Sequence record: NC_055712.1
Reading direction: 5' to 3' (one strand)
DNA: 64,000 nucleotides
Origin: Escherichia phage phT4A
Shown: piece after piece, positions 8,920-55,826 of the stretch
Position numbering within the stretch: position 1 is the stretch's first letter
Layout: every line of letters starts with the position of its first letter
Program-made: the position numbers and the translations under genes
The notes under the pieces: model-generated
The model's database searches: none
Told to the model about the DNA's origin: nothing
The model's input: only the letters and a program-made list of their open reading frames with translations

Positions 8920-9534
8920 ATGCAATTTAGATTATATCTAGTAGAGTTTAAAACTTCTACGGGAATAAAAATATATGGAGGTAAACGCCATTCTCCATTT
9001 AATGATCCTAGACATGATTGTTATTGCGGATCTGGGGTATACATCAAACGAGCATTAAAAAAATATGGAAGAGAATGTATTGTTAATATACAATGGTCAA
9101 AACCGTTTCCAAACAAGGATTTATTAGCGGAAGCCGAAGAATTACTTGTTGATGAGTTGATAGCATCTTATGATAATTGTGTTAATTTAGTTCGTGGCGG
9201 TAAAGGAGGTGCTTCTTTTTATAATCCAGAAGATAACCCTAATTTTGGTTCTAAACGATCTATTGAATCTAAAATAAAGATGTCAGAAAAGGCAAAAAAT
9301 AGGGTTTATAGCGAGGAAGGACTAAAACGAAGACAGGAAGCCACTAGGGTCATGATTCAACACAGAAAGCCTCGTGATGTTTCTGGAAGCAAAAACCCAG
9401 CCGCACGAAGGGTAATTGTGGATGGAGTAGAATACTCAACATTGAAAGAATGTGGAGATCATTACGGGATAACTAAAAACTCCGTCTTTAGTCGAATAAA
9501 ATCTAAGAAATGGGAGGGATGGAATTATGCGTGA
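8920..9534 (+). CDS. putative Seg-like GIY-YIG homing endonuclease (degenerate GIY-YIG N-terminus, NUMOD-like C-terminal DNA-binding repeats)
   Basis: 204 aa inserted between gp13 and gp14 (no gene there in T4); N-terminus YLVEF..GIKIYGGKR, basic C-terminus with IVDGVEYSTLKECGDHYGITKNSVFSRI. Confidence 0.6.
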   Translation: MQFRLYLVEFKTSTGIKIYGGKRHSPFNDPRHDCYCGSGVYIKRALKKYGRECIVNIQWSKPFPNKDLLAEAEELLVDELIASYDNCVNLVRGGKGGASFYNPEDNPNFGSKRSIESKIKMSEKAKNRVYSEEGLKRRQEATRVMIQHRKPRDVSGSKNPAARRVIVDGVEYSTLKECGDHYGITKNSVFSRIKSKKWEGWNYA

Positions 9535-10273
9535 TTGGGATGATAATTTATTCGCACAGTTGGAATCTGGCGAAGGTGTTGATAATAGTTTAAAAACGGA
9601 AGTTACTAACAAATACGTTAACTGGTACAAGTATAACCCTACTCAACAGTTACATGATTCACTAACAGCCGAAGCAATTCAAATGAAATCTCCGGATATG
9701 TATTACGTCCGTCGAGAATTTGTTAATATTGATAAAATTTTGGGTGAAGACCGTGAATCGAAGTTTACAAAATCGTGGAAAATTGCAGCATACATCGATT
9801 CGTATGCAAACTACGAAGGACAGAGAGACTTTTACAGCAAATTCGGTATGATGTCAAACGATGAAATGACACTTGTGATCAATCCTCGTTTATTTGCACA
9901 TCAAACTGATGGCGGGATCCCTGTTCTGGGGGATTTGATTTATTTCCCTATGGATAATAGCCTGTTTGAAATTACATGGATTGAGTTTGATCCGTTCTTC
10001 CAGTTCGGTGATCGTCCTCAACGTAAAATCAACCTCGTTAAATTTATCTATACTGGTGAAGAATTGGATCCTAAACTGCAACGAAATGAAGGGATTAACC
10101 TTGCTCCAGATGCTGATCTGGATCTCGAACCTATTCGAAATCTTGATGGATTGGCTGATACCAATATTGAACAATACGAAGAAGATCAAGCCTTTGAAGA
10201 TGAAGGCGATGAATTCATTGAATCGTTTGATGTTGTTAACGGACGCGGATCACCGTTCGCACAGTTCCCATAA
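9527..10273 (+). CDS. 14: neck protein gp14
   Basis: 248 aa; NLFA(K/Q)LE, FTKxWKxAAY, GDLIYFPxDNSLFEIxW, LQRNEGIN as in T4 gp14. Confidence 0.92.
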   Translation: MRDWDDNLFAQLESGEGVDNSLKTEVTNKYVNWYKYNPTQQLHDSLTAEAIQMKSPDMYYVRREFVNIDKILGEDRESKFTKSWKIAAYIDSYANYEGQRDFYSKFGMMSNDEMTLVINPRLFAHQTDGGIPVLGDLIYFPMDNSLFEITWIEFDPFFQFGDRPQRKINLVKFIYTGEELDPKLQRNEGINLAPDADLDLEPIRNLDGLADTNIEQYEEDQAFEDEGDEFIESFDVVNGRGSPFAQFP

Positions 10274-29997: not shown

Positions 29998-30837
29998 TCA
30001 ACCCCAAGTGTCAGTTTTCGGTGCGTATGCTGCAACTTTAGCCACAATTTCCTTATCCAGTTCAGCTACAGATTTCTGAGGCTTACCACGGGCTTTAACT
30101 TTGATGTAGTTTGACTTAACAACAAACATCCCTTTGTTACTTGATTTCTTGATCTCGCTATCAACACCAACTTTGTTAAAGCTGATCCAAATGTCGCCGT
30201 CCATATACTGTTTAAGAGAATCACCCATGTTCAGGATCTTCGCCATAGTAAGGGCCGCGCCTTCGTGGGTATCCATGAGAATTTCTTTAGGAACTACACG
30301 ATCGCGTTTCTGGTTCTGCTGCATAGCAATATGCACATCGTTCATAACCCATACGATATGTACGTTTTCTTTTTTGTATCCCAGCGTTTCGACATCACGT
30401 GCGATGCTTGCCAGCTTGCTCATGCCTTTTAACGTTACGTCAAAGATGAGGTTAGGTTTACGATCTTCTGGTGCTGCCATAATACCGGAATAAACACGGT
30501 TTTGGTTTTTGTTGGAAATGTTGAAAACGTCGGCGATCACATGATGGAGGGTAGATACGTTTTCTGGGTTTTTGAGGTTCATTGTTTTGACATCATGACC
30601 CGTTTGTTTCTTGATCTCTGCTGCGAGTTTATCGCTACCCATTACAAGTTTTTTCAGGGCGTCAACGTCCAGGGTAATACCTTCGATGCCTAGCAGTTTT
30701 TCCAGTGTGAATCCTTTACCGGAACCAGCACCGCCAGCCAGAATAACAACCTGACCGAACTTAGGATAAGCACGGCCCCCGAAGGTGATCAGCGCTTCGG
30801 TTAAGGTGCTTTCTGTGAATTGTTTAAATGACTTCAT
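29998..30837 (-). CDS. glycine-rich-loop nucleotide-binding protein, NMP-kinase-like (function unknown)
   Basis: 279 aa; VVILAGGAGSGKGF resembles the adenylate/NMP-kinase P-loop (GxxGxGKG), later hhhhD (LIFDV) candidate Walker B. Confidence 0.5.
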   Translation of the reverse strand: MKSFKQFTESTLTEALITFGGRAYPKFGQVVILAGGAGSGKGFTLEKLLGIEGITLDVDALKKLVMGSDKLAAEIKKQTGHDVKTMNLKNPENVSTLHHVIADVFNISNKNQNRVYSGIMAAPEDRKPNLIFDVTLKGMSKLASIARDVETLGYKKENVHIVWVMNDVHIAMQQNQKRDRVVPKEILMDTHEGAALTMAKILNMGDSLKQYMDGDIWISFNKVGVDSEIKKSSNKGMFVVKSNYIKVKARGKPQKSVAELDKEIVAKVAAYAPKTDTWG

Positions 30838-30869: not shown

Positions 30870-30899
30870 TTGACATGCTTTCTGACAGTGGTGTATGGT
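30870..30899 (+). promoter_or_regulatory. sigma70-like early promoter (TTGACA-N18-TATGGT)
   Basis: Consensus -35 and acceptable -10 in the divergent intergenic region upstream of the 30952 ORF. Confidence 0.4.
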
Positions 30900-30951
30900 T
30901 ATGGTGTTCGACGGATAGGCCGGAAGAACTTTAAACCATAAGGTATACGAT

Positions 30952-31827
30952 ATGAAAATCAATTTACATCGCTTCATTGTAGAATTTTCCCGCGACCGCG
31001 ACATGGACTCTTTCAACTACTACTCCCGTGAAATTGAAGATCGTTTTGCGGCTCATGTTGGGTTCCGTCGCCACCATACTCCTAAAATGCGCCCTGACCA
31101 CGATCCGAAGTATAGCCCTATCACATGGCAAGCCCCGATCAATGGTTACGTTGAAGGGATCCGGATCATGACTTTTAACGCGATGTATGGAAACGCTTTG
31201 ATCCATATTGCACGTGAGAAAAGGGCAGAATTCCCTAACGGCTGGCGTATTGATGAAGTGATTCAAACCCTTATGCAGTTACGACGTGAATACAAAGCTG
31301 GTATGTGTCTGCGTAATGAACAGTATCCGATGTATAAAACGTATGCCTATATCTCTAAGCATCTAATTAATTCCATGTTTTACATCGTTGGTAATCATGG
31401 TTCCGCTATAGATATCGGTTCTTATGAAATCGTGGCTTATGCTCGCGAACAAGGAAAGGCCGCTGCACTGAAAATCATTGAATCTGGTGCTATCATTCTT
31501 AACCATCGCATTGATACTATTGCTTACTATGGCGATCAGGTTGAGGTTGAAGGCGTACACCATGAACGATTCAACAAAGCCGTATTTGCTAAAAATGGTT
31601 ATGCTTATGGTAATGACATTATAACTTCTGCTATTCCTTTCGTTCGTCTAACTGTTGAAGGATTTGGAGAAAGGTTGCCTTATAAACTGTCAGAAGCTCA
31701 AATGTGTGCGGCTGCTGAAAGAATCGCCAAAAAGCGGAAAATGTATACCGATGAATACCTGGCGTATGTCAACAAGACAAAAGAAGATGTAGATCGAGAA
31801 ATTTCTTGCATGGATTTGTGCCTTTGA
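30952..31827 (+). CDS. hypothetical protein
   Basis: 291 aa ORF, no family recognised. Confidence 0.55.
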   Translation: MKINLHRFIVEFSRDRDMDSFNYYSREIEDRFAAHVGFRRHHTPKMRPDHDPKYSPITWQAPINGYVEGIRIMTFNAMYGNALIHIAREKRAEFPNGWRIDEVIQTLMQLRREYKAGMCLRNEQYPMYKTYAYISKHLINSMFYIVGNHGSAIDIGSYEIVAYAREQGKAAALKIIESGAIILNHRIDTIAYYGDQVEVEGVHHERFNKAVFAKNGYAYGNDIITSAIPFVRLTVEGFGERLPYKLSEAQMCAAAERIAKKRKMYTDEYLAYVNKTKEDVDREISCMDLCL

Positions 31828-31859
31828 TATAATGTAAGCATCTTTTAAAGGGAGGATGC

Positions 31860-32177
31860 ATGAAAACGATACATTGCAGAAATGAAAACGTTGTTTACTA
31901 TCACGGTTCGTGTACTGCTGCTGGTATTGAAAGCATGTTATTGCCTCCCTGTGATTCTGATACTCTGTCTGAAAAAGGCAGGAAGAAAAATTTAGACCGT
32001 GTTTTCTTTACCGCTGATATCGGGTTAGCTCGTATATACGCTGGAAGGGCCGCGCGTTCTATAGGTGGGGAACCTGTTCTGTACAGGGTTGTGTGTCCGG
32101 TTGATGTTGTATGCATGAACGAAGACAAAGGCGCGAGCGTTTACCATGCAGCATGGGCGTTTTGTGAGGAATTATGA
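31860..32177 (+). CDS. small ART-fold-like protein resembling the NAD-binding lobe of Tpt1/KptA RNA 2'-phosphotransferase (tentative)
   Basis: 105 aa; VYYHGS ... VFFTAD ... RIYAGRAAR...PVLYRV parallels KptA LYHGT ... VHLSAD ... ARKVGARHGSPVILTV. Confidence 0.35.
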   Translation: MKTIHCRNENVVYYHGSCTAAGIESMLLPPCDSDTLSEKGRKKNLDRVFFTADIGLARIYAGRAARSIGGEPVLYRVVCPVDVVCMNEDKGASVYHAAWAFCEEL

Positions 32178-32349
32178 ATGATAAAGTGTTGGCGTATCTC
32201 GTTTTCTTGCTGGGATATCGCTTAGAAGTGATGGGCGCGTATTCATCAATGTATGGTGATTTAACGGCTATCTGGATGGTTGGGTTAGGGGTTGCTTTTA
32301 CATTCCTTTCCTTTGCAATTGTTAATGAATCGGAAAAGGATATTGTATG
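32177..32349 (+). CDS. small hydrophobic protein (57 aa, two predicted membrane helices)
   Basis: ATG overlaps the upstream stop and its stop overlaps the next start; below the track cut-off. Confidence 0.4.
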
Positions 32350-32673
32350 AAACTATATCATGTGATCTACTCTGGTGTTTTAGGCATTGACAAACAAATG
32401 TTAGTTGATGTAATGTGTAAAAAACTCGATGAGCGAATTGGAACCCGATACAAAAATCATGTATCGGAAAGTATCTTCATCAACGTTGACCATCCAAATG
32501 ACATGGAAGAAATGGTTAATACTCTTGATGATCAGCAGATCCCGTTTGTTGACAATTTCAACATGAGCGCTGGAGTGTATACGGTAGTAACTTTTGTTCT
32601 AAAAAATGTTGACAGCCGAAACGATAGCGTGTTGAATGTAGTTGCAAAAATCGATTCTACCAAAGGAAAATAA
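32347..32673 (+). CDS. hypothetical protein
   Basis: 108 aa ORF, translationally coupled to neighbours. Confidence 0.5.
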   Translation: MKLYHVIYSGVLGIDKQMLVDVMCKKLDERIGTRYKNHVSESIFINVDHPNDMEEMVNTLDDQQIPFVDNFNMSAGVYTVVTFVLKNVDSRNDSVLNVVAKIDSTKGK

Positions 32674-32674
32674 T

Positions 32675-33031
32675 ATGAAAATTGTACACCGTAGCATTTC
32701 CGAACTGTCTCAAGCTGAAAAAGTGCAAATTCATTTCAAATTCAATGATTTGCGTAAAGGTTATGCCGAAATTGCCCGTGAACATGGGTTAGATAACGGC
32801 GATATTTACCAGGTAGTACAGGAAATTGAACGTATCCGCGCGTTCCGTTCTGCAAATCTCCCTGTTAAAAATGCAATGCGCCGCGAAGCGATCGAAATCC
32901 ATCGTAAGCGTGTGTACAATTTAGAACGTGCTAAACGTCCGATGAAGAAAGAAAAGAAACCTCGTCCGTTTAAACGTGAACATCTTAACACCTCTATGGC
33001 GCTGGCGTTTCAAGATGCGGGGATTATCTAA
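32675..33031 (+). CDS. hypothetical basic protein
   Basis: ATG at 32675 with RBS; 118 aa, lysine/arginine-rich C-terminus. Confidence 0.5.
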   Translation: MKIVHRSISELSQAEKVQIHFKFNDLRKGYAEIAREHGLDNGDIYQVVQEIERIRAFRSANLPVKNAMRREAIEIHRKRVYNLERAKRPMKKEKKPRPFKREHLNTSMALAFQDAGII

Positions 33032-33555
33032 TGCGTAAATCTGCGATGGATCGTTGGGCTAGTATTGCTACTTCAAACGTAAAACCAAATCAAGCCGCAC
33101 CTGATGTAGAAGCGGTTCGTAAAGCAAAAGAACCTGAGATCGTGGCCCTTAGCCCTGAACTCATCGAGCATCGCCGTCGTGCGTCTGCTATTGAACTGGA
33201 TCTGCGTATTGCGCGTTCATATAATCTCAAGCATGAACACGCCGCAAAGAACAACCATTCTTTTGACCTTACTCTGGAAGATTGGAAAGTGTTGATGACA
33301 ACTGAACGTTGTCAGTATTCCGGCAAGATGTTTAGCAATAAACCAGGTAGCCCATATGCCCGTACAATGGAACGTATTAATCCACGTCTGGGATATACAC
33401 AAGAAAATACAATAGCGGTTATCAACGCCGCTAATGCCGAAAAATCACAGCTTGATGCATTCGTTAAGGGTGATGTCATTCTGGATGAAGTAAAAGTGAA
33501 GTTGCTGCGTAAAGCACTTTATCAAGTCGAAAAACGTGTGAAAATGAAAGGTTAA
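33031..33555 (+). CDS. hypothetical protein, possibly a degenerate HNH-type nuclease domain
   Basis: 174 aa; ERCQYSG...MERINPRLGYTQENTIAVINAANAEK resembles an HNH core with substitutions; weak. Confidence 0.35.
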   Translation: MRKSAMDRWASIATSNVKPNQAAPDVEAVRKAKEPEIVALSPELIEHRRRASAIELDLRIARSYNLKHEHAAKNNHSFDLTLEDWKVLMTTERCQYSGKMFSNKPGSPYARTMERINPRLGYTQENTIAVINAANAEKSQLDAFVKGDVILDEVKVKLLRKALYQVEKRVKMKG

Positions 33556-33558
33556 ATT

Positions 33559-34578
33559 ATGTTTAAGAAATATTCTTCTCTGACTAACCATTATGAAGGT
33601 AAGTTCATCAATGGTGTAATTATGAACGGGCTTACTGGCGGTGTGTGGGTTGCACGTGAAAAGATCCACGGTGCTAACTTTAGTTTTATCACCGATGACG
33701 GTATTACCGTTACCCCCGCAAAGCGTACTGATGTTGTTAAGCCAGCCGAAGATTTTTATGGCTGTTCAGCAGTAGTTGCAAAGTATTCCCCAGGGATCCG
33801 TAAGATGTGGGAAACCCTCAAAAAGACCGGAACTTATGATGATTTGGTTATTCAAGTCTACGGTGAATTTGCGGGGCGCGGTGTACAGAAAGATGTTGAT
33901 TACGGCGAAAAAGATTTCTATGTATTCGATATCCGTGTAAATGGTGAATTCCTTCCGGATAACCTGTGCTCGCTGATCTCTCGATCTCATGGCCTGAAAA
34001 TGGCCCCGCTGTTGGGATATGGTACTTTTGAAGAGATCAAAGAACTGCCGATCACGTTTGAATCTGTTGTGAATAAAGCAAATAGCGGCATTGGTAGCGA
34101 TAATACAGTATATGGTGAATTCGTATATCCTATCATGGAAGTTGAAGAGGGCAACATTGCAGAAGGTTTTGTAATGAAACCTGTTTCACCTGCTTTTATG
34201 CCAAACGGTGAACGCGTTGCAATCAAATGCAAAACAACCAAATTCACTGAGAAGAAAGCGAAGAAAGCAACCCGCTTTAATGCTCCGGTTTCATTGTCAG
34301 AAAAAGACAAAAACCAACTCGATGAGTTTGTTTGTTACCTTACAGAGAACCGTGTGAAAAACGTTCTTTCGAAACTGGATCTGGCTTCGATCACTGCGAA
34401 AGATTTTGGTCGCATTATGGGCTTAACTGTTCAGGATGCTATCGAAGAAATCAGCCGTAATCACGGGCCTTTCCTCGAACAGTTCGAAGACCCAGCAATG
34501 GCTAAGAAGCTGTTTGTAACCGAAGCCCAAAACATGATTCGCCCTGTATGGGGCAAAATCCTGAACCATGAATTTTAA
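33559..34578 (+). CDS. rnlB: RNA ligase 2 (RnlB)
   Basis: 339 aa; MFKKYSSL.NHY..KFI, GGxWVAREKIHG(A/T)NFS (active-site Lys motif), VFGEFAG.G(V/I)QK.VDYG(E/D)KDFYVFDI, VAIKCK, MGLTVQD as in T4 Rnl2. Confidence 0.93.
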   Translation: MFKKYSSLTNHYEGKFINGVIMNGLTGGVWVAREKIHGANFSFITDDGITVTPAKRTDVVKPAEDFYGCSAVVAKYSPGIRKMWETLKKTGTYDDLVIQVYGEFAGRGVQKDVDYGEKDFYVFDIRVNGEFLPDNLCSLISRSHGLKMAPLLGYGTFEEIKELPITFESVVNKANSGIGSDNTVYGEFVYPIMEVEEGNIAEGFVMKPVSPAFMPNGERVAIKCKTTKFTEKKAKKATRFNAPVSLSEKDKNQLDEFVCYLTENRVKNVLSKLDLASITAKDFGRIMGLTVQDAIEEISRNHGPFLEQFEDPAMAKKLFVTEAQNMIRPVWGKILNHEF

Positions 34579-35149
34579 TCAGATTCTGGTTGATGCAAAA
34601 GCGGCTACCCTGATCGGTAGCCGTAAACCTCCTGAACGTATCGCAAACATTGCTGTTAAAATCGGACGTGCTTTGAACGAACGCGGGATCAGGGCTTATT
34701 CTGGCGGCGCTCCTGGTATGGATAGTCACTTTCTGTTTGACTATAGTCCGGATAACAGATGTATAATCCTTCCTGATAACGGGTTTAACGGCCTTTTCTC
34801 AAACGGAAAGGATATCATCGACTTTCGAGATTTAAACACACAGAAAGCTGCTGACGAAGCCAGAAAGGTAGCAGGTAACTTCGATACACAGAATGAATAC
34901 GTTCAAAGAAGGTATGCGCGAAACACGATTCAAGTTCTTCGTGAAAATCTTGACAATCCAACTGATTTTGTTTTATTTTGGGCGGAAGAACGTGAAGGAT
35001 GTGTTAAAGGTGGAACCGCGATCGCTGTAAGATTGGCTAGGTTGTACAGGGTTCCATGTTTCAATCTCTTCAAAGAAAGTGTATTGAACGATGTGTGTGA
35101 TACGTTAGGGATCAATATCAAACCCCCAACGTTGGATTTTTTATGGTAA
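34568..35149 (+). CDS. SLOG/DprA-LOG-like Rossmann-fold protein (putative nucleotide-binding)
   Basis: 193 aa; IRAYSGGAPGMDSHF matches the SGGxxGxD signature of the DprA/Smf-LOG (SLOG) fold. Confidence 0.45.
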   Translation: MNFNQILVDAKAATLIGSRKPPERIANIAVKIGRALNERGIRAYSGGAPGMDSHFLFDYSPDNRCIILPDNGFNGLFSNGKDIIDFRDLNTQKAADEARKVAGNFDTQNEYVQRRYARNTIQVLRENLDNPTDFVLFWAEEREGCVKGGTAIAVRLARLYRVPCFNLFKESVLNDVCDTLGINIKPPTLDFLW

Positions 35150-35661
35150 TTGAACATGCGCCCTTACTTCGTGAAACATACGAAAGATGGGCTGTTAATA
35201 ACGCAATAGGTGAAAATATGATTCATGTACGTAGTATCGGTGCTGACGGCGAAACTCCAGTAGAAGGCCGATCGCCCACTCTCGCAGAACGAGCAAGAGA
35301 AATTATCAACGATCAGAATGCTAAGATGATCGAACATGCGCGGGATACAATCACAAAAGGTGTTCTGAAACACGCGACACAACAAAACCTTATCTATGAT
35401 ATGAAGCACGATATCGGCTCTTGTCTGGGTATTGAATGTACTCGCTATGCATTCCAACGAGTTTCTGAATGGTTGGAAGAAGAAGGGCTAAAATTCGATA
35501 CAGAAGAAAAACGCAACGCCGCTAAGATCACAAATTCTCTGGCTAGTAAGTACAATCAAACGTATAGAAACCAGGAAGAACGTGAAGTGTTCGGTTTCAA
35601 AATTCCTGAAAGGAAAACAGATCGCCGTGTAAGTGAATTCACTTTTTACATTAGTTGGTAA
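35143..35661 (+). CDS. hypothetical protein
   Basis: 172 aa ORF; start uncertain. Confidence 0.45.
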   Translation: MVIEHAPLLRETYERWAVNNAIGENMIHVRSIGADGETPVEGRSPTLAERAREIINDQNAKMIEHARDTITKGVLKHATQQNLIYDMKHDIGSCLGIECTRYAFQRVSEWLEEEGLKFDTEEKRNAAKITNSLASKYNQTYRNQEEREVFGFKIPERKTDRRVSEFTFYISW

Positions 35662-35668
35662 AAAGGTG

Positions 35669-35697
35669 TTGACGGGGGTTGGTTATAGTAGTATTCT
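35669..35697 (+). promoter_or_regulatory. sigma70-like early promoter (TTGACG-N17-TATTCT)
   Basis: -35/-10-like pair upstream of the 35739 ORF. Confidence 0.35.
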
Positions 35698-35738
35698 AAC
35701 TCCCGTAGACAAGACACTAACTCAGAAGGATAAACATC

Positions 35739-35999
35739 ATGGAAATCGTAATGAAAGCAACTTATGCTGGATACTGCCTGGAAGCAAAAGGTGTTGCTAA
35801 CAATGGTAAAGGCTTACGGGCCAATGTTGAAGCAATGCTGGATGAATTACATGCAATGTACGAATATGACAACGTAGCGGGTAGTGTTCTTATCCAGGCG
35901 TTGGAAGTCGATGGTGTTGATTGTGCTGGTTGGTGGGATGCTTACATTGACTACAACGATAACCGGGTTTACCTGTTGAGCAACAAAGATTATTTCTAA
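35739..35999 (+). CDS. hypothetical protein
   Basis: 86 aa ORF. Confidence 0.45.
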   Translation: MEIVMKATYAGYCLEAKGVANNGKGLRANVEAMLDELHAMYEYDNVAGSVLIQALEVDGVDCAGWWDAYIDYNDNRVYLLSNKDYF

Positions 36000-36008
36000 G
36001 GAACCATT

Positions 36009-36458
36009 ATGAGCGATGAAGCTGAGGCTTTAGAAGATTGGGCTGATTTTGATGACGAAGAAGACGGTGAATATTTCTGCGTTAATCGTGGTGCTTATAA
36101 AGACCGTTTAGAACTCCGTAAACTTTTATCGGGTTCCTCTCAAATATCAGGATCCAAACGAAAAAGTAGTAAACAAAAAGTTCAGTATAGTGATGGTTCT
36201 GTACGTGATGAAACTGTTGTTGCTGAATTCCGTGGTCGGGTTATCACAAAAGAAAGACAAATTGATGTAAAGAACTTGTATGAAGTGGCTAAGGCTGCTA
36301 AAATAGGTTCTGTGATTGTTTGCCCTGTGTGCAAAGAAAAACACACAAAGACAACGTATCACAAAGTTTTCTGTTCGAATGGCAGAAAAACCAGTAAGGA
36401 TTGTAAGTCTAAATATCACAATACAATCCATCCCGAACGACTGGATCGGGTATTTTAA
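36009..36458 (+). CDS. hypothetical zinc-ribbon protein
   Basis: 149 aa; acidic N-terminus, CPVCKEKH...C(17)CKSKYHN Cys/His cluster. Confidence 0.5.
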   Translation: MSDEAEALEDWADFDDEEDGEYFCVNRGAYKDRLELRKLLSGSSQISGSKRKSSKQKVQYSDGSVRDETVVAEFRGRVITKERQIDVKNLYEVAKAAKIGSVIVCPVCKEKHTKTTYHKVFCSNGRKTSKDCKSKYHNTIHPERLDRVF

Positions 36459-36485
36459 AATAAACCTAAAACGTGGAGTACGTTT

Positions 36486-37919
36486 ATGAACAACAAAACT
36501 TTCGAAGAACTGAACAGCATCATCACTTCCGTAGATTCCTATAAGGTTTCTCACTGGTCGCAATATCCAACTGGCTCCGAAGAGGCGCTGTTTTATATTG
36601 AATCTCGTGGTGGTAAATTTGATCAAGTAGTTACGGCTGGCTGTAACCGCCTTGCGCAAATCCTATCACGTCCGGTGACTATGGAAAACGTAGATTTTGC
36701 TAATCGGTTGTACAAAATGCACTTTGGGCGCGAAATCTTCAACTACAAAGGTTGGAAAGAAATTGCAGAACTGGGTTACATCCCTCTTGAATTCAGAGCG
36801 ATTCCGGAAGGAACCCCAGTAGCGGTTAAAAATCCGGTTGCAACTTTCCATGCTGGGAAAAATGCGCTGTGGTTAGCAGGACACGTAGAAACCCTGGCGA
36901 TCAGGGGAGTATGGTTCCCTTCAACCGTAGCAACTCTATCCCGCGAATGTAAAAAAGTGTTGAAGAAATATCTCAAGAAAACCTCCGATCTCGAAGGTGA
37001 AGCATTTGATATGGTATTACGTACCCGTTTGCATGACTTCGGCGCACGTGGAACCTCTTCTGCTGAATCTGCTGGTATTGGTGGCCTTGCTCATCTGTAT
37101 AACTTCCTCGGTACTGATACCGTAGAAGCGCTGATTATGGCTATCTCTCTGTTTGAAGATTGTCAGAAAGCGTTTGATGATGGTGAAATGGCGGCTGGTA
37201 TTTCAATTCCTGCTCGCGAACATTCCACTACCGTTTCTTACGGCAAAGAAAACGAAGACCTTGCATACAAAAACAGTATTGAGATCTTCGGTGAAGGGAT
37301 GTATGCATGTGTGTATGATTCCTGGGATTTTAAAGCGGCGGTTCGCCGTATCGCAGAATATAAAGATTCTATTCTTTCTAAGGGCGGTACTCTGGTAGTT
37401 CGTCCGGATTCTGGCGATATGGTAGACAATATCATGTACGCTCTTGAAGAACTGGGCCGTATCTTTGGCTATACAGTGAACTCAAAAGGGTATAAAGTAC
37501 TACACCCAGCAGTAAGGATCATTCAAGGCGATGAAATTCATGGCCCTGAAACAATCAATCGGGTGTTGAACTGGATGGAGTCTAACCGTTGGGCGTCTGA
37601 AAACATCGCGTTTGGTATGGGCGGCGGATTGCTTCAAGAAGTTACCCGCGACACTCAAAAATATGCGATGAAAATGTGCGCAATCAAAATTAACGGTGTG
37701 TGGACTGGTGTGTATAAATGTCCAAAAGGCGCTGAATGGAAAAAGAGTAAAAAAGGGTTGTTAATGACTATCACTGATGGTGTTAACTTTAAAACCATTG
37801 ATACTCTGGAACAGAAAGTGCCGGAAGGCTGGAAAGATGCTATGATCACATACTATGTCAACGGAAAGATTACTGCCCGTGACACTTTAGAGGAAATTAG
37901 GAACCGTGCCGGGATTTAG
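36486..37919 (+). CDS. nadV: nicotinamide phosphoribosyltransferase family protein (NadV/NAMPT-like)
   Basis: 477 aa; N-terminal DSYKVSHW signature, HDFGARG, GxGGGLLQ-type C-terminal block typical of the NAMPT family. Confidence 0.88.
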   Translation: MNNKTFEELNSIITSVDSYKVSHWSQYPTGSEEALFYIESRGGKFDQVVTAGCNRLAQILSRPVTMENVDFANRLYKMHFGREIFNYKGWKEIAELGYIPLEFRAIPEGTPVAVKNPVATFHAGKNALWLAGHVETLAIRGVWFPSTVATLSRECKKVLKKYLKKTSDLEGEAFDMVLRTRLHDFGARGTSSAESAGIGGLAHLYNFLGTDTVEALIMAISLFEDCQKAFDDGEMAAGISIPAREHSTTVSYGKENEDLAYKNSIEIFGEGMYACVYDSWDFKAAVRRIAEYKDSILSKGGTLVVRPDSGDMVDNIMYALEELGRIFGYTVNSKGYKVLHPAVRIIQGDEIHGPETINRVLNWMESNRWASENIAFGMGGGLLQEVTRDTQKYAMKMCAIKINGVWTGVYKCPKGAEWKKSKKGLLMTITDGVNFKTIDTLEQKVPEGWKDAMITYYVNGKITARDTLEEIRNRAGI

Positions 37920-38208
37920 TATCCGCAAAAACGACAAAGGAACCGTGATTTTCTATGACAACATGCCCCTTGTAGCTCGCAAGGGGCTTTTTGCTAAAAT
38001 CGCTGGGTATTCCTTTAAACTGGAAGAAGTCAACGACGAAACACTAAAAGAGATCGTAAGAATTGCCTTACAGTTAAGAGGTAAGAAAGACGAACAAAAA
38101 GCTATTGACATGATCAATAAATTGGGTGAAACTCAATGCTTCATAGTGAATCGTGGTTACAAGTACGATACCATTGCAAAATTTGAAAAAGGGCTTTGTG
38201 AATTATGA
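37906..38208 (+). CDS. hypothetical protein
   Basis: 100 aa ORF overlapping the nadV end; start uncertain. Confidence 0.4.
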   Translation: MPGFSIRKNDKGTVIFYDNMPLVARKGLFAKIAGYSFKLEEVNDETLKEIVRIALQLRGKKDEQKAIDMINKLGETQCFIVNRGYKYDTIAKFEKGLCEL

Positions 38209-39854: not shown

Positions 39855-40113
39855 AAGTAGAAAAANNNNNNNNNNNNNNNNNNNNNNNNNNNNNNNNNNN
39901 NNNNNNNNNNNNNNNNNNNNNNNNNNNNNNNNNNNNNNNNNNNNNNNNNNNNNNNNNNNNNNNNNAAAACGTAGGTTATGGACAGGATATACCCTGGAGG
40001 CTTTACAGGCCGACCCAGAACGTTCTAAGCTACTTCCTTACATTGATGTTCTGATTGATGGTAAGTATGAAAAAGATTTGCCAACAGAAAAAGCCGTTTC
40101 GCGGTTCAGATAA
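39851..40113 (+). CDS. nrdG: ORF interrupted by scaffold gap; the C-terminal 46 codons resemble the NrdG (anaerobic RNR activase) C-terminus
   Basis: MKVEK start overlaps the gp49 stop; after the gap ..WTGYTLEAL...VLIDGKYEKDL resembles E. coli NrdG ..WTGYKLDEL...VLVDGKF.QDL. Confidence 0.45.
39866..39965. other. scaffold gap (100 N)
   Basis: Exactly 100 N; true size unknown. Confidence 0.99.
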
Positions 40114-40166
40114 TCAACGTATGATCGAATTCGCAATAAAAATTCGATAGAAATTAAAAATATTGC

Positions 40167-40194
40167 TTGACCTAATGTGTAACTATGGTAATCT
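40167..40194 (+). promoter_or_regulatory. candidate early/middle promoter (TTGACC-N16-TAATCT, overlapping a TGCTT MotA-box-like motif)
   Basis: ATTGCTTGACC ... TAATCT about 45 nt upstream of the 40240 ATG. Confidence 0.35.
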
Positions 40195-40239
40195 TACCAC
40201 ATCGTAAATGACGATTAACTTTAATTGAGAGATAATATC

Positions 40240-41208
40240 ATGATCCTGAATTTCAAAACCCGTAAAGAAGCGCGTAACTACTGCTGGAAGTGGAACATTC
40301 CCCTGAAAACCATCCGTAATACAGGGCGCGGTTCTTGCCCGTGGACAGTTCAAGCAAATGAACTGAAAACGTTCGTGGTTGGTAAAACTTACAAACTGGT
40401 TGACCGTGAAGGGTTTACTACCAATTCACACGGCGGATCTAACACCGCAAACACTATCCAGGCGAGACAGATCGAAAAATTCCTGAATAACGAGGTAAAA
40501 ATTATCTCGAAAACCAATTCAGATACTTTCAAAATTGAGCATACTCCGGAAATGACTTTTAGCTCTCTGCGTTCGTGGGAAGCTCGTTATTTCGTCGAAG
40601 TTGGCGCGGCTCCGGTTAAGAAAACGAAAGCTAAACCGAAAAAAGCCAACGTTACGGCTCCGGTCGCACCTGTTGCACCAGTAACAGCAGTAACAGCAGA
40701 TCTTGATCAAATGCTTGATGGTGGTTCGGCAATGTCGGTTGAACTGGATCCGACTAAATTTGTTGAAGGCCGTTCGTATGTTCTGGTTAAACCGCAGCAA
40801 TTTAAAAATCGTTGTGGCGCTAACCACGGGATCAAATCATATACCGATGAACACAGTAATGGTGTATACACCGTTTACCATACGACTTCGCTCGGTCATC
40901 ATCAATTGAGCAAAACGGTAGAAACCATTGATTCCCAGACCGGAAAAGTTGGTTACTATCTGCTTGATTCTGAACGTTCGTTCTTCCGTGAACTGGCGAC
41001 AGGAATTGTTGATGAACCTGTTAGCGTTTCCGGTAATAGCGCTATCGCTATCAATGTAGACGAAGCGGCTAAGAAAGAAGAAATCGCAAAAGCAATGACA
41101 CAGCTTGAAGAAGCGGTTAAGGCCCATGATGACGCTCTTCAAAATCTGCGTACTGCTTCCGACCTGGTTCGCAAAGCTGCTCGAAAAGTAGCAGAAGTAA
41201 GCAAGTAA
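40240..41208 (+). CDS. hypothetical protein with internal tandem-duplicated domain, Pro/Ala/Val-rich linker and C-terminal coiled coil
   Basis: 322 aa from the ATG at 40240; repeats ..FVVGKTYKLVDREGF..SHGGSN.. and ..FVEGRSYVLVKPQQF..ANHG..; linker APVAPVAPVTAVTA. Confidence 0.55.
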   Translation: MILNFKTRKEARNYCWKWNIPLKTIRNTGRGSCPWTVQANELKTFVVGKTYKLVDREGFTTNSHGGSNTANTIQARQIEKFLNNEVKIISKTNSDTFKIEHTPEMTFSSLRSWEARYFVEVGAAPVKKTKAKPKKANVTAPVAPVAPVTAVTADLDQMLDGGSAMSVELDPTKFVEGRSYVLVKPQQFKNRCGANHGIKSYTDEHSNGVYTVYHTTSLGHHQLSKTVETIDSQTGKVGYYLLDSERSFFRELATGIVDEPVSVSGNSAIAINVDEAAKKEEIAKAMTQLEEAVKAHDDALQNLRTASDLVRKAARKVAEVSK

Positions 41209-41216
41209 ATTAAACT

Positions 41217-41239
41217 GGGTGCTCCGGCACCCTTTTTTA
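41217..41239 (+). terminator. rho-independent terminator (gggtgc-tccg-gcaccc + T6)
   Basis: Perfect GC stem and T tract after the stop. Confidence 0.65.
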
Positions 41240-41250
41240 TGAGGTGACAC

Positions 41251-41919
41251 ATGGAATTATTAGAAGGTAAATCTTATACCCTGAACATCGACGCTAAAGA
41301 ATTTGCAGAAAAAACCTGGCGAAATGCTTTAGCTGAATTGATCAAAAACAACGGCTATATTACAATCGATCGTATTGCGATTGGGGATACTGAGGACATT
41401 GCTTATGTTCTGCAAGATGATTTCGAATATGAGATCCCTAGCCATATCTGGAAATACTTTAAACCATATGATTTACCGGAAGAAGAACCGAAGATTGCTA
41501 CTAAAGAAGAAATCGCCGCGCCTGATTTAAATTTCGTATCTTCCGATCCTAAAATGTGGATGACTGTAAAACCTGTTCAACAAGATATCAATGATCTGCG
41601 ATTTGATTATCCTTTTGTCAAGCGGATCACTTCGATTTCTGTACTACCAGCGCCGACGGATTCACAGGCACTTGAATTTGCATTACAGCATGTTTTCGGT
41701 GATAATAAGCTGTACGCGATTGACAAGGAAGCTGCTATTGATGAACAGAAAAAGGAAATCATCAACCTTCTTTCTCTGCATCAACAACTTGAAGCGGTGG
41801 AATTGATTGAGCGTATGCTTTCTGATACAAAGAAAGATATCATTAGCAAAATCACTCCGGCACGAAGGAAAGCAATTGATGAAAATCGAGATTTACGGTA
41901 TTCCCGAATCGCTTCATAA
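41251..41919 (+). CDS. hypothetical protein
   Basis: 222 aa ORF; 3' end overlaps the next gene by 41 nt. Confidence 0.5.
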   Translation: MELLEGKSYTLNIDAKEFAEKTWRNALAELIKNNGYITIDRIAIGDTEDIAYVLQDDFEYEIPSHIWKYFKPYDLPEEEPKIATKEEIAAPDLNFVSSDPKMWMTVKPVQQDINDLRFDYPFVKRITSISVLPAPTDSQALEFALQHVFGDNKLYAIDKEAAIDEQKKEIINLLSLHQQLEAVELIERMLSDTKKDIISKITPARRKAIDENRDLRYSRIAS

Positions 41920-42160
41920 ATGTTATGGTTGTATTGAAGCTCGGAAATTACTTGATGAGCATGGATTAGAATACGAATTTTATTCTGTTCTAAAGCCAGC
42001 AAATAACAGTGTGGGGTTTGATTACGATCGGCCCCGCATTGAAGAGTTAGCGAAACGTGTTCGTAGTCGAAGCATGGCATTTACTTACCCTCGGATCTTT
42101 GTAGATGGTAATTTTATTGGCGGTTATATGCAATTGAAAGAGTATTTGGGTGAAGCATGA
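41879..42160 (+). CDS. glutaredoxin-like protein (possible NrdH-type redoxin)
   Basis: 93 aa from the ATG at 41879; CYGC active site, TYPRIFVDGNFIGGY glutaredoxin signature. Confidence 0.7.
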   Translation: MKIEIYGIPESLHKCYGCIEARKLLDEHGLEYEFYSVLKPANNSVGFDYDRPRIEELAKRVRSRSMAFTYPRIFVDGNFIGGYMQLKEYLGEA

Positions 42161-42456
42161 ATAAAGAATACATTCGCAAAGTAGCAAACGCTATTCACGC
42201 AACAACGATTGATTTTCTGGAAGGGTTTGATCATATTATCCATCCCGAAACGTTGGATAGTTGGGAAGCCAAACTGTTTAAAAGTATCAATGAACAGTTT
42301 CCGGAAAAGGTTAAGCGCTGGTTTATCAGACAGGAAATCGTAGCAACGATCCTTAATGAACGTGGTGTTGAGGCGTTCGGTGTAACCCCTCTATATAAAC
42401 GAAACCAGATTACAGACGAAACAATCAAGAAATATAAAAAGATGGTTCGGAAGTAA
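42157..42456 (+). CDS. hypothetical protein
   Basis: 99 aa ORF, start overlaps the upstream stop. Confidence 0.5.
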   Translation: MNKEYIRKVANAIHATTIDFLEGFDHIIHPETLDSWEAKLFKSINEQFPEKVKRWFIRQEIVATILNERGVEAFGVTPLYKRNQITDETIKKYKKMVRK

Positions 42457-42472
42457 TAAATAATCAGTTAAA

Positions 42473-42492
42473 TGGCCTTCGGGCCATTTTTT
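42473..42492 (+). terminator. terminator hairpin (tggcc-ttcg-ggcca + T6)
   Basis: Stem-loop plus T tract before the gene 34 late promoter. Confidence 0.55.
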
Positions 42493-42495
42493 GTA

Positions 42496-42503
42496 TATAA
42501 ATA
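42496..42503 (+). promoter_or_regulatory. late promoter box TATAAATA upstream of gene 34
   Basis: Exact TATAAATA 33 nt upstream of the gp34 ATG. Confidence 0.6.
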
Positions 42504-42535
42504 TTGGTATTGAATACAATATAGGAAAAAAGATA

Positions 42536-45500
42536 ATGGTAGCTAAATCATTCCGCGCACGAAGTGGCCTTGATGCTGCTGGTGAAAAAGTTATCAACGT
42601 TGGGAAGGCTGATCGTAATACGCTGAGTGACGGCGTTAACGTTGACTTTTTCAATGAATTTAACGGAATCCAGCAGTATGACCCGACCCGTGGTTATTCT
42701 CAAGACATGGCGATCATTTATGCGCGTCGTATCTGGTACGCAAAACAGAATATTGCTTCCCCTGCTGGGGCTTTCGACGAATCCAAATGGATCGCAACTC
42801 GTAATGACCCGAAATGGGTTTATAGTAACGTAACCACTCCGGACGGTAGTATTATCGATTCTGGTAGTTACATTATGGCTGATGGGCGTTTTACCGAACT
42901 TCTGTACCTGCTGCCGGACAACCCGACAGAAGGCGACGTAATCACGTTTAAAGATTGCGGTGGTTTGGTTGGTGTAAACAGTATCCTCGTTAAGTCTAAC
43001 ACTCGTCAGATCCGTTTACGTGCGGTACAATCAGCGCAATATAGATTAACTCATCCTTACATGATCGCAACGTTTATCTATAACGGTAACGTGTGGCGTG
43101 TTTCTGAGGCGCTGGATAACCGTGATTCTGAAATAGTAAATGCAACCGGAACAGGTTCATTCCAGTTACAATCTGGCATGACAGTTTTCCGTAATAGCGC
43201 TACAGGTAAAATCACTCTCCAGTTACCAAAATATGCAAACGACGGTGATGTGATCACAACCTACGACGCTGATAAAATGAACTCTATCAACGTAGCCGTT
43301 TTGCAGATATATCCGGGTAGCGGACACACTATTTCTGATGGTGCAAGTACTGGTGTTACTTCGGTAACTAGCCAGAAATCCGGCTTTGGCATGTTCATCT
43401 TTGATGCACAGAATAGCCAATGGAAAGTATACGATGCGGATAACCGTGTTCGTCTACGTCGTATCTATAGTGATTTAAACGCAGTTCCAAATGATTATGT
43501 TTTTGTTACTGCAAACCCTTCTGGGGCTGTACCAAACGTTACTGTTACTCTCCCAACTGATGTTGCTGATGGTGACCGTGTTTACGTATCCCTGTATATG
43601 ATGGGTAAAAACCAGAACTGTACAATCAAAGTTAAAGATGGTACTACGGATAAGATCCGAACCAATAAAAACATGATGCAGTTCCCGCAGCGCAAAGATT
43701 ATCCGCCCGATGATTGGTTTAGCGTAACGTCTCTTGCTTTTAACGCAGGTAGCGATTACCTCCCTTATATCGAGTTTTCTTACCTGAAAGCTACGAAAGA
43801 ATGGGTTGTTGCTAACTATCGTCCGATTGTTGAACGCGTTGATGCAACAAACCGTACTCGTACTGGTGTTATTGCTCTGGCTGCTCAGGCAGAAGTTAAC
43901 AAAAACCTGGAAGATAACCCGAACGACGAAACGGCTATTACTCCGATGACGTTAGCAAATAAAACAGCTACTGAAACGCGTCGTGGTATTGCGAGACTGG
44001 CAACTACTGCCGAAGTTAACAAACTATCTACAGATACCTATCTGGATGATGTGATTGTTACTCCTAAGAAGCTGAACGAAAGAACAGCTACTGAAACGCG
44101 TCGTGGTTTGGCTGAGATTGCAACCCAGGCAGAAACAAACGGAAGTACCGATGACATTACGATCGTGACTCCTAAAAAGCTGCATAATCGTATCGCATCA
44201 CCAACATTAACGGGGATCCTTGCTCTTGTTGCAACTGGTGGTACTGCAAACACCAACACAGACCGTGCTCAGGCTGGTACTGGAATTTACGATCACTCAG
44301 ATTATCAAAAGGCGGTAACGCCTAAAACACTGCGTGAATATAAAGCAACTGAATTACAATCCGGTGCTGTATGGCTGGCAAACCTGAATGAAGTTATTAA
44401 CGGTACTGTTGCAAGTTCTAACATTCCGACCGTCGTTACTCCGGAAATGTTACACAAGAAAACTTCTACTGATGCGCGTATTGGTTTGATTGAGATCGCG
44501 ACTCAGGCAGAAACCAACGCAGGGACTGATTACACGCGAGCGGTAACGCCTAAAACGCTTAATGATCGTACTGCTACCGAAGGTCTAACCGGGATTATTG
44601 CAATTGCAACCACTGCCGAAGTATCAGCAGGTACTGTAACGAATAAAGCGATCGTACCGTCTAAACTGAAAGGTTATCTGGACGATACAAGTCATATTAC
44701 TGTTGCTACTGCTGACGGGTTAACTCAATCTGGTACTATCTGGACTACGGTTAACATCGGTATTCAATCAGCAACTGAAACTCAACGTGGTACTTTACGC
44801 GTTGCTACGCAGTCTGAGACGAACGCAGGGACATTAGATACAGTATTTGTCACCCCTAAGAAGTTACACGCTAAGAAAGCGACTGAGAGCGCAGAAGGTA
44901 TCATTCAGGTGGCTACGGCTGCTGAAACTACCGCTGGCACCGTTGCAAACAAAGCTGTTTCTCCTAAGAACTTGAAAAATACGATTCAGGTTGATACTTC
45001 ATGGCAAGCTACCGATCTGGTACGTGGTACGGTGAAACTGTCTAAAGGTGCTGGTACTTGGTCTGGTAATGATGTGGCTGGTTCTACTCTTCCTGATGAT
45101 GGTTACGCCGCTGTAGGTGTTGCTGTTTCTCCGTATGAATTGAACTTAACGCTGAAACATTATCTGCCTATCGGTGCTAAAGCTGTTGATGCTGATAAAC
45201 TTGATAATCTGGATTCTTCTCAGTTTATTCGTCGTGATGTTGCACAAACTGTTAATGGTGCGTTGACCCTGACACAAACAACCACTGTACAAGCTAACAT
45301 CAACTCAACTGCTGATGCATCTTTTCGTGTGATGAATGTCAACGGTGATTTAAACGTTGGCGACGGTTCGTCGATGGGTAAACTTCGTCTGAATGGTGGT
45401 TCAGCTAACGACTGGTCTATTCAAGCCAGTGCTGCTTCTGGGCGTATTGCGATGATTTCGACGGGTAATACTAGCACAGTTCATCTTTCTGTGTATAATG

Positions 45501-46309: not shown

Positions 46310-47245
46310 TGTCAAACTTAATGGCGGGGTTCGGCCCCGATTTTGTAGAAACGCAAATTCTATCGGAAACAAACAGCGTAACTTACAGAATAACCGCAAA
46401 GGCAACACATCCCAATGCGGTTCCTAATCAGTATGAGTTTACACTAAATCAAAAGGCGGTAGGGACACCGCCTAGTGTTGGGATCAACGTATGGAGAATT
46501 AACAATGCTGTAGTTGATCCAATTAAAACCTTCACATTATCGAATGATAATTCAGCAACTGCAAACAAAGCGTTTGTTGAATATATGGATGCTCAACCTT
46601 CTGGGCTGTATTTGATAATGACTAACGGTGAATACAAAACAAGCCAAATCGTTGATGATTGGTTTGCTAAAAACAGATCCGTTATGTGGCAAGGCGCTGA
46701 TTTCGCTCAGAGATTCCCAAATTCTGCATATGTTGCATTGTATGGGGCTTCAAAATCTCGTATACTGATTGAATCGTTTTACGCGAACGATGGAGTTTTA
46801 AAAGAAGATTCACGCGCATCAATCGATCTTGTCTATGATAACGTTGGTGATGTTGGGCGAACTGGTGTACCTTTCCGATCTGTTGAAGATACGGAAGAAT
46901 ACAATTCAACCAATGGATCTGAATATAAAGTATATCCTGTTGCAAACCCAGTGATCTCTAAACTGGCTGATTATGGTATGGCTCCTGGATTAGCTATGAT
47001 GATTGCTGGTGATTTTTACGCCAGCAAAGCATTATTGGATGCTGGATCAACAACAAGGGTTACTGTTCGATGGTTTACGGGTACTGCTCAAACTTCATCA
47101 TCGGTGATTGAAGTTCCTGCAAATAAACCTGATGAGTGGTTACGATTTGAACAGTTCTATACGATCCCTAGTGGTTGTGATGGATTTAACGTTGCTGTAT
47201 CTCGTTATCCTAAACCCGCTACGGATAGTTTATCTGCGTATCCGT
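46309..47245 (+). CDS. 35: long tail fibre hinge protein gp35 (3' end lost in scaffold gap), assigned by position
   Basis: ATG overlaps the gp34 stop; 312 codons before the gap (T4 gp35 is 372 aa); the track's 1640-aa ORF is an artefact of reading through N. Confidence 0.55.
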
Positions 47246-47345
47246 NNNNNNNNNNNNNNNNNNNNNNNNNNNNNNNNNNNNNNNNNNNNNNNNNNNNNNN
47301 NNNNNNNNNNNNNNNNNNNNNNNNNNNNNNNNNNNNNNNNNNNNN
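47246..47345. other. scaffold gap (100 N)
   Basis: Exactly 100 N; probably hides the gp35 3' end, possibly gp36, and the first codons of the distal fibre gene. Confidence 0.99.
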
Positions 47346-51219: not shown

Positions 51220-51226
51220 TAAAATA

Positions 51227-51240: not shown

Positions 51241-51261
51241 TTCATTCTTAAAGGTAAAATA

Positions 51262-51663: not shown

Positions 51664-51669
51664 TTTCTA

Positions 51670-55823: not shown

Positions 55824-55826
55824 TGC

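Follow-up and report, generated by a model that had tools for sequence, protein, structure and literature searches.

A DprA-clade SLOG protein encoded directly downstream of RNA ligase 2 in Escherichia phage phT4A, a predicted nucleotide binder in a putative counter-defence or repair module

Background

What is the role of a small SLOG protein whose gene begins inside the end of the gene for RNA ligase 2? This question is raised by a locus of Escherichia phage phT4A (NC_055712.1), of which a stretch of 64,000 nucleotides (nt), here called the window, was analysed. An earlier note, made from the letters of the sequence alone, had described the gene at 34568..35149 as encoding a SLOG/DprA-LOG-like Rossmann protein, of a fold that binds nucleotides or nucleotide-derived ligands and recurs in conflict systems. 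Here we report that the gene is real and native to the phage and that its product, referred to below as the SLOG protein, belongs to the DprA clade within the SLOG superfamily. The best explanation of its function, which we put forward tentatively and with less than even confidence, is a stand-alone protein that would bind a nucleotide within single-stranded nucleic acid, or an ADP-ribosyl nucleotide, as part of an early counter-defence or repair module.

Results and discussion

A native gene that overlaps the end of rnlB

The core of the locus consists of the following features:

33559..34578, + strand: rnlB, the gene for T4-type RNA ligase 2, directly upstream of the SLOG gene with an 11-nt overlap (Pfam, PHROG 548 and sequence)
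34568..34578, + strand: overlap of the rnlB end and the SLOG start, ATGAATTTTAA, a likely translational-coupling site (read from the sequence)
34568..35149, + strand: SLOG gene of PHROG 768, DprA clade, an ATG-to-TAA open reading frame (ORF) for a single-domain protein of 193 amino acids (aa)

The final codons of rnlB, whose TAA stop occupies 34576-34578, contain the ATG of the SLOG gene (34568-34570). The upstream product is a true T4-type RNA ligase 2 (Rnl2): it matches Pfam RNA_ligase (5.3e-19), T4_Rnl2_C (7.1e-15) and PHROG 548 (1.7e-115) and carries the motif-I lysine, K35, in EK35IHG. Thus the position immediately downstream of RnlB and the overlap of start and stop, both read in the earlier note, are confirmed. 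The co-expression that it suggested is plausible in view of the overlap, the shared strand, the lack of any + strand terminator-like site between the two genes in our scan and the lack of a TATAAATA late promoter between 28075 and 42495 in a consensus scan.

The SLOG gene is real, native and under purifying selection. Comparison with five relatives of 77-79 % aa identity reveals 94-104 substitutions at third codon positions as opposed to 20-34 at first and second positions, none of the five has a stop codon in the gene, and the gene matches the window in GC content (0.427 against 0.424). Positions 33000-37000 are 99.5 % identical to Klebsiella phage Roth22, with which the window coordinates correspond one-to-one from 113243 onward, and 98.8 % identical to phage PMBT1 (Straboviridae, genus Slopekvirus). 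The region is flanked by hoc/inh and gene 49/nrdD and lies within a string of small accessory genes.

Two relatives differ at the rnlB junction. An IMG/VR relative with a 94 % identical SLOG protein (L006) has a 172-aa ORF at 9484..10002 between rnlB and the SLOG gene, and in phage ALF_ER54 (H25) an HNH endonuclease is annotated in the region that matches this ORF; the insert is probably a homing endonuclease that breaks the rnlB/SLOG overlap. A relative with a 72 % identical SLOG protein (L012) has, upstream of 10001, an opposite-strand 370-aa ORF in place of rnlB and keeps the rest of the string.

The product belongs to the DprA clade of the SLOG superfamily

The SLOG protein belongs to PHROG 768, annotated 'DprA-like DNA recombination-mediator protein', and does not differ from that family: residues 11-188 align to positions 4-187 of the 191 in the profile with an E-value of 1.5e-60. 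A profile alignment of 32 SLOG homologues (A1) finds Helicobacter pylori DprA (HpDprA) among PDB entries with an E-value of 3.7e-6, and a LOG-type enzyme with one of 8e-4. Aligned directly by hhalign to HpDprA, whose sequence had been verified beforehand, A1 gives 94.8 % probability and an E-value of 5e-8 over 140 columns, pairing GSR with GTR, SGGAPGMD with SGGALGVD, ARN with ARN and KGGTAIAVRLA with KSGSMSSARLA. The AlphaFold2 model (pLDDT 94.1, pTM 0.89) has HpDprA as its top Foldseek match in the PDB (5e-6), followed by ShosA, other DprAs, molybdenum cofactor (Moco) carrier proteins, ThsA, LOGs and YpsA. Both hallmarks of the superfamily are present: the Rossmann-like three-layer alpha/beta fold common to DprA, LOG, YpsA, Moco carrier proteins and the ThsA SLOG domain, and the glycine loop S45-GGAPGM-D52 together with G148-G149-T150, aligned to the DprA motifs.

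The fold named in the earlier note is therefore borne out by PHROG 768, hhalign and structure prediction, the last of which it had proposed as a check along with profile comparison to the DprA and LOG families. Its reading of SGGAPGMD as the SGGxxGxD signature also stands. It had raised chance occurrence as a refutation; the SGG..G.D pattern appears a single time when the window is translated in all six frames, compared with an average of 0.03 over 200 codon-shuffled versions. The comparison with YspA that it had likewise called for gave less: giant-virus YspA/DUF2493 models match the SLOG model only at E-values of 1e-3 to 1e-2, with a TM-score of about 0.4.

Within the superfamily, several better-known identities can be set aside. 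The protein is not a bona fide DprA, because it scores under both curated cut-offs (21.4 bits against 29.6 for Pfam DNA_processg_A, PF02481, with 45 residues matched in 10-54 only; 18.7 bits against 191.15 for TIGR00732 of NCBIfam) and is a single domain with neither the SAM nor the winged-helix domain. It cannot be counted among the LOG enzymes either, because the catalytic Glu of the LOG/PpnN (PF03641) motif PGGxGTxxE is replaced by Ala (A153, local sequence KGGTAIA); Pfam Lysine_decarbox (LOG) gives no match. Nor is it a YspA/YpsA-type SLOG, since the Pfam models of those families (PF10686 YAcAr, DUF1273, DUF2493) do not match it, although viral SLOGs of that type are likewise stand-alone, in some cases fused to DUF4326, and annotated 'Smf/DprA'. 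No Pfam model captures the PHROG 768 family.

The 'DprA-like' fold assignment is already known from GenBank and PHROG 768. Slopekvirus records in GenBank carry 99 %-identical proteins, annotated DprA-like, at the same position after rnlB, and PHROG 768 lists YP_009626476.1 of Klebsiella phage PMBT1 as an example. The finding is thus not novel in this respect, the gene being already annotated and the family catalogued; viral SLOG domains were also covered by an earlier computational survey (Iyer et al. 2022, PMC9503650). The label of recombination mediator in the databases is nevertheless probably misleading, as it implies a function that the context does not favour. A few family members in public records bear other names, namely 'YspA SLOG family protein', 'RNA ligase' and 'FHA domain-containing protein'. 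Among the orthologues (P0017 and P0021), 'RNA ligase' in Pantoea phage Phynn and 'FHA domain-containing protein' in Escherichia phage UPEC03 are probably annotation errors.

The nucleotide pocket of DprA is retained

The pocket motifs are encoded at four places:

34616..34624, + strand: GSR motif with R19, A1-invariant, aligned by hhalign to GTR and the ssDNA-binding R52 of HpDprA
34700..34723, + strand: glycine-rich loop S45-G-G-A-P-G-M-D52, aligned to SGGALGVD of HpDprA
34919..34924, + strand: R118-N119, the 'RN' motif of DprA, R118 being aligned to R143 of HpDprA (hhalign, ARN/ARN)
35009..35017, + strand: G148-G149-T150, corresponding to SGS of DprA and to GT of the LOG motif PGGxGTxxE, aligned to KSGSMSSARLA of HpDprA

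Conservation was assessed in 165 diverse family members, each less than 60 % identical to the query. Eight residues are 100 % conserved (G17, R19, G46, D52, R118, G148, G149 and T150) and a further nine at 95 % or more (S18, P22, S45, A48, G50, P69, N119, Q122 and N166), N119 reaching 98 %. The arginines with which HpDprA binds single-stranded DNA (ssDNA) were named as R52, R143 and R170 in a study of ShosA (PMC12961424). These correspond to sequence indices 48, 139 and 166 of HpDprA (structures 4LJK/4LJR) and align by hhalign to R19, R118 and R155 of the SLOG protein, R155 being present in the query and variable across the family. Thus the DprA nucleotide grip, made of Arg19 of GSR, the S45-D52 loop, Arg118-Asn119 and G148-G149-T150, is retained. 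At the position of the LOG catalytic Glu, 98 % of the 165 members have Ala. The family is mildly basic, with a median isoelectric point of 8.4.

The wider family has in addition conserved aromatic and His positions that DprA does not have (LPW, GFNG, HPxW, and LH before RN). The T4-like subgroup departs from the family at residues 44, 70, 102-105, 115-116 and 125 (alignments A1/A2), where R44, W70, H-P-x-W, L-H and G125 are about 80-97 % conserved. The query has D70, A102-G-N-F105 and R115-Y116, as well as R125 where 97 % of members have Gly.

Distribution and fusion partners

When 1.84 billion cluster representatives were searched by profile, 6,408 proteins, counted as clusters at 50 % identity, had E-values of 1e-3 or below, and 2,277 reached 1e-30 or below. 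Most members are stand-alone proteins of about 170-200 aa. By tblastn, the family is present in 1,340 of 50,697 phage records (about 2.6 %), chiefly phages of Klebsiella, Pseudomonas, Escherichia, Vibrio, Aeromonas and Acinetobacter, and spans T4-like, Pakpunavirus, Vequintavirinae, phi92-like, T5-like, N4-like and jumbo phages. It is rare on plasmids (34 of 72,556 records), where the genes sit among leading-region-like accessory genes (SRAP, DUF736, ImmA, SocA). A consensus query of bacterial genomes found one locus, in a metagenome-assembled genome of Chthoniobacteraceae; this low count reflects the poorly conserved peptides on which the query relied.

Among 20 longer relatives from the profile search, five are fused to NADAR, four to DUF4326 and one to MazG; P0038 makes a fifth SLOG-DUF4326 fusion, and an Erythrobacter megaplasmid encodes a SLOG+Macro fusion (Pfam Macro, 1.7e-11). 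Two of the five NADAR fusions are polyvalent proteins of the type of P0044 and P0045, metagenomic proteins of 1,488 and 1,475 aa that join the SLOG domain to YAcAr and LDcluster4 SLOGs and a C-terminal NADAR domain. Of 36 sequence groups drawn from IMG/VR and phage loci, five have DUF4326 either as a fusion or no more than 10 kb away, and one has NADAR as the adjoining gene. NADAR (T4 gp30.3, AdfN) has been established by experiment as a DNA ADP-ribosylglycohydrolase that defeats DarTG1 (PMC11257639). DUF4326 is uncharacterised and predicted to process ADP-ribose phosphates, and viral SLOGs were predicted in the same work to act on ADP-ribose derivatives (Iyer et al. 2022, PMC9503650).

The domains that are fused to SLOG elsewhere (NADAR, DUF4326) are separate genes in this phage lineage. 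Roth22 encodes a stand-alone gp30.3/NADAR (Pfam, 7.4e-56; L104 2781..3218) beside DNA ligase and a stand-alone DUF4326 protein (1.6e-18; L103 43967..44293) beside nrdB, rnlA and pseT. It also encodes Rnl1 and PNK, and a bifunctional NMNAT-Nudix protein (L104 26139..27197), the partner enzyme of NAMPT.

Neighbourhoods across phages

In 10 of the 36 groups the SLOG gene has a gene for an Rnl2-type ligase no more than 10 kb away on its own strand, and in seven groups the distance is three genes or fewer. The ligase gene directly adjoins the SLOG gene in Slopekvirus and relatives and in Jiaodavirus, whereas two small ORFs separate the pair in a T4-like vibriophage and a single ORF does so in Sinorhizobium phage phiN3. 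The SLOG gene of Krischvirus occupies the same gene-24 locus in the absence of rnlB, and in T4-like phages a DUF2774 gene travels with the rnlB-SLOG block. NAMPT is found within 10 kb in four of the 36 groups. NAMPT or other genes for salvage of nicotinamide adenine dinucleotide (NAD) lie near the SLOG gene in Slopekvirus, Pakpunavirus, Menderavirus and phiN3. For example, the order in Pakpunavirus is phosphoribosyl pyrophosphate (PRPP) synthase, NAMPT, phosphatase, SLOG, and that in Stenotrophomonas phage YB07 is NMNAT-like, NAMPT, SLOG. Rnl2 was also considered as an obligate partner of the SLOG protein and rejected, most Rnl2 phages being without SLOG and most non-T4 SLOG phages without Rnl2.

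Proposed function and its alternatives

According to the explanation that we tentatively favour, the SLOG protein would be made early, probably by translational coupling to RNA ligase 2. Its pocket would hold a nucleotide, plausibly modified with ADP-ribose or damaged in some other way, within a single strand of nucleic acid, and the protein would serve as the recognition subunit, or possibly the processing subunit, in an NAD-linked network with which the phage controls damage or counters defences. There it may work with enzymes that remove ADP-ribose (NADAR, Macro), with DUF4326 and with one that seals strands (Rnl2). This reading draws on the fusions to ADP-ribose hydrolase domains and on the placement beside Rnl2 and NAD-salvage genes. 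Of the wording in the earlier note, the nucleotide-binding fold holds, and the role in conflict systems is one suggested by fusions and neighbours. Were a counter-defence or repair role shown, a widely propagated annotation would be corrected and light shed on the role of T4-type RNA ligase 2; given its association with Rnl2, NADAR, DUF4326, Macro and NAD salvage, the protein is a reasonable, if not urgent, target for experiment.

A bolder version is quite improbable. Here the SLOG protein would be an enzyme or an obligate specificity factor for nucleotides of single-stranded RNA or DNA that bear ADP-ribose or some other adduct; it would take off the adduct itself or pass the strand on to NADAR, DUF4326 and Rnl2. 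If true, it would reveal a novel pathway of de-ADP-ribosylation plus ligation by which T4-like phages escape defences that modify nucleic acids, for example DarTG or CmdTAC, and would supply the long-missing in vivo role of RNA ligase 2.

A number of observations weigh against a binder of this kind in a counter-defence or repair module. Every functional step for the PHROG 768 family is one that we infer, and the pocket could equally bind a free nucleotide. D52 is the one invariant acidic residue, so that no other supports catalysis, and it is likewise invariant in DprA, which is non-enzymatic. About 80 % of the wider family keep W70, H102-P-x-W105 and H116, which the T4-like subgroup has lost; the ligand may therefore differ in the Slopekvirus/T4-like subgroup, and the sequences hint that its ligand or partner has changed. 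Most members are stand-alone with mixed neighbours. For example, the gene lies beside rII and ribonucleotide reductase in an N4-like phage and has PhoH as a neighbour in another phage, and in Proteus phage vB_PMC-PL1 a tandem pair of DprA-like genes stands between transcription regulators and genes for a helicase, DNA-ligase subunit B and primase. The link to Rnl2 is facultative, and where the two genes adjoin in T4-like phages, this is for the most part synteny that these phages share at the rnlB-gene 24 locus. Of the 1,372 phage records with Rnl2, 554 are from Escherichia phages, as against only 178 Escherichia-phage records with SLOG. Among Pseudomonas phages, at least about 200 of the 238 SLOG records are without Rnl2: Pseudomonas is absent from the ten most frequent host genera of Rnl2, the tenth of which has 30 records.

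The pair in vB_PMC-PL1, a T5-like phage (L087 3998..5628), encodes proteins of 211 and 333 aa.

The alternatives differ in what the pocket would hold. Second in probability, though unlikely, is a SLOG for soluble ligands that would bind, sequester or cleave a free ADP-ribose-derived nucleotide of host immunity, such as cyclic ADP-ribose isomers or ADP-ribose phosphates, and so act as a sponge or signal degrader. The fusions to Macro, NADAR, DUF4326 and MazG fit the processing of small nucleotides equally well, the recurrence near NAMPT, NMNAT and PRPP-synthase genes points the same way, and Iyer et al. made the same prediction for viral SLOG domains (PMC9503650). The additional aromatic and His residues of the wider family, absent from DprA, suggest an enclosed site, but this cluster is lost in the subgroup of the query phage. 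Moreover, sequence and structure both place the protein nearest to DprA and ShosA, which bind ssDNA, rather than to ThsA or LOG, the invariant residues are those that DprA uses for ssDNA, and the catalytic Glu of LOG is missing. The SLOG domain of ThsA (Thoeris; 7UXS) has the same fold and binds an ADP-ribose-derived ligand. Very improbable is a LOG/PpnN-like phosphoribohydrolase that would release ribose 5-phosphate from adenosine monophosphate (AMP) or another nucleoside monophosphate and feed PRPP to NAD reconstitution by NAMPT and NMNAT. The Pakpunavirus gene order and the NAMPT gene in the query string would suit it, as would the predicted binding of AMP by a related SLOG, ORF83 of DruSM1 (preprint 10.1101/2025.06.06.658234); yet the Glu of PGGxGTxxE is Ala in nearly the whole family, the Pfam LOG model does not match, and the proximity of NAMPT is confined to four groups.

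Two further readings stay closer to DprA and its relatives. A DprA-like recombination mediator, which would bind ssDNA and load UvsX/RecA in recombination-dependent replication or repair, is rather improbable. It would account for the top rank of DprA in sequence and structure, for the conserved ssDNA-binding arginines and for the tandem copies of the T5-like phage among DNA ligase, helicase and primase genes, and a survey of jumbo phages has suggested an ssDNA-binding role for phage DprA/Smf (PMC7824862). On the other hand, the DprA cut-offs are failed and the SAM and winged-helix domains are wanting, the SLOG gene lies in an accessory early-gene string away from the recombination genes, and the family is fused to hydrolases of ADP-ribose or nucleotides but never to a recombinase. 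Roth22 encodes UvsX, UvsY and gp32, so that a complete set of recombination mediators is already present in the phage. The family also occurs in one N4-like and one T5-like phage, which are not known to have a recombinase of their own, a further point against a loader. Least probable is that the phage carries its own copy of ShosA/PsyrA as an orphan antitoxin mimic, which would neutralise defences of the ShosTA/PsyrTA type. PADLOC gives weak matches to ShosA (3.4e-5) and PsyrA (3.8e-4), and a precedent for a phage orphan antitoxin exists in AdfN/NADAR against DarTG1 (PMC11257639), but both matches are limited to residues 9-53, 45 residues in all. ShosA (PDB 8ZVA) is a protein of about 300 aa that has a SAM domain and a phosphoribosyltransferase toxin as partner and acts via RecA; its antitoxin activity needs SAM, dimerisation and RecA binding (PMC12961424), whereas the SLOG protein is without SAM. 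No toxin-like neighbour of the ShosTA/PsyrTA type lies beside the SLOG gene, and the size and diversity of the family go well beyond what one would expect of the mimic of one defence. Taken together, the SLOG protein is probably neither a classical RecA/UvsX loader nor a LOG-type hydrolase.

ORF83 of DruSM1, annotated Smf/DprA, was considered as a member of the same family, as the only SLOG with a phage phenotype: its presence reduces sensitivity to Avs type III (preprint 10.1101/2024.04.14.589459). It was rejected, and probably falls among the viral SLOGs of the YspA/YpsA type. By its description, its best PDB match is LOG and the spacing from RN to T is 23 residues, compared with at least 30 in the SLOG family; its reported close structural homologues are SLOG-DUF4326 proteins of the Marseillevirus type, and giant-virus SLOGs of that sort resemble the phT4A model only remotely. 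Among the Queuovirinae, CAjan gave no match to the family profile and 9g has no DprA-like gene annotated in the part examined. We conclude that ORF83 is a member of another SLOG family, so that the anti-Avs3 phenotype does not carry over to the protein of phT4A.

The local gene string

All genes in 30952-37919 are on the + strand and tightly packed. The elements that bound the string, with two of its genes, are:

30870..30899, + strand: sigma-70-like match TTGACA-18-TATGGT at the head of the string (consensus scan)
31860..32177, + strand: predicted ADP-ribosyltransferase of the p0068-like family, 105 aa (homologues including ZZ1p0068)
36486..37919, + strand: NAMPT (NAD salvage), last gene of the string (Pfam NAPRTase 6.9e-41, NAMPT_N 2.6e-22)
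37965..37987, + strand: terminator-like hairpin after NAMPT, with a 9-bp stem, 6 GC pairs and a T-run (consensus scan)

The stretch 30870..37987 holds twelve + strand genes: one for a 291-aa protein of unknown function, the ADP-ribosyltransferase-like gene, DUF2774, an Srd/HNH-like gene, rnlB, the SLOG gene, three small ORFs, NAMPT and others. Judged from these signals and the gene order, it looks like one early transcription unit. As the counts of promoter and terminator sites in the scans are not above those of shuffled sequence, the operon boundaries are suggestive only. No Rfam families or tRNAs were found in 29-40 kb of the window.

The ORF at 31860..32177, four genes upstream of rnlB, is more than 65 % identical across many T4-like phages. 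Its homologues include p0068 of Acinetobacter phage ZZ1, and for some of them the source record uses the name 'ADP-ribosyl transferase'; a p0068-like family of predicted H-Y-[EDQ] ADP-ribosyltransferases has been described (PMC9503650). Searches of Pfam and of PDB sequences gave no match. The guess of an Arr/KptA-like ADP-ribosyltransferase was therefore set aside for want of such matches, its support being the source names and membership of the p0068-like family.

Further along the string, the ORF called at 35143..35661 (+) seemingly overlaps the SLOG stop. Its start is probably the ATG at 35218, which is preceded by a Shine-Dalgarno-like AGGTG, so that the overlap is probably not real; PHROG 7671 aligns to the ORF from residue 26, and the PMBT1 annotation begins at the equivalent ATG. 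This ORF was rejected as a partner in a SLOG module, its family being confined to Slopekvirus-like phages. Together with ORF86 and ORF149 it makes up three lineage-specific small genes that occur only in the Slopekvirus-like group.

Three minor observations concern the surroundings. Sequence from 39865 to 56841, beginning inside the start of nrdD, contains 400 N bases in total, and ORF calls there are unreliable. The product of 33031..33555 (+) carries the label 'decoy of host sigma70' (PHROG 4592, Srd-like). It has matches to HNH/endonuclease VII PHROGs as well (2e-20 to 6e-7) and none in Pfam, and the label may be questionable. Finally, divergent from the rnlB/SLOG string, 29998..30837 on the - strand encodes a P-loop protein of 279 aa whose kinase domain is Zeta_toxin-like (Pfam 2.8e-7; PHROG 5268).

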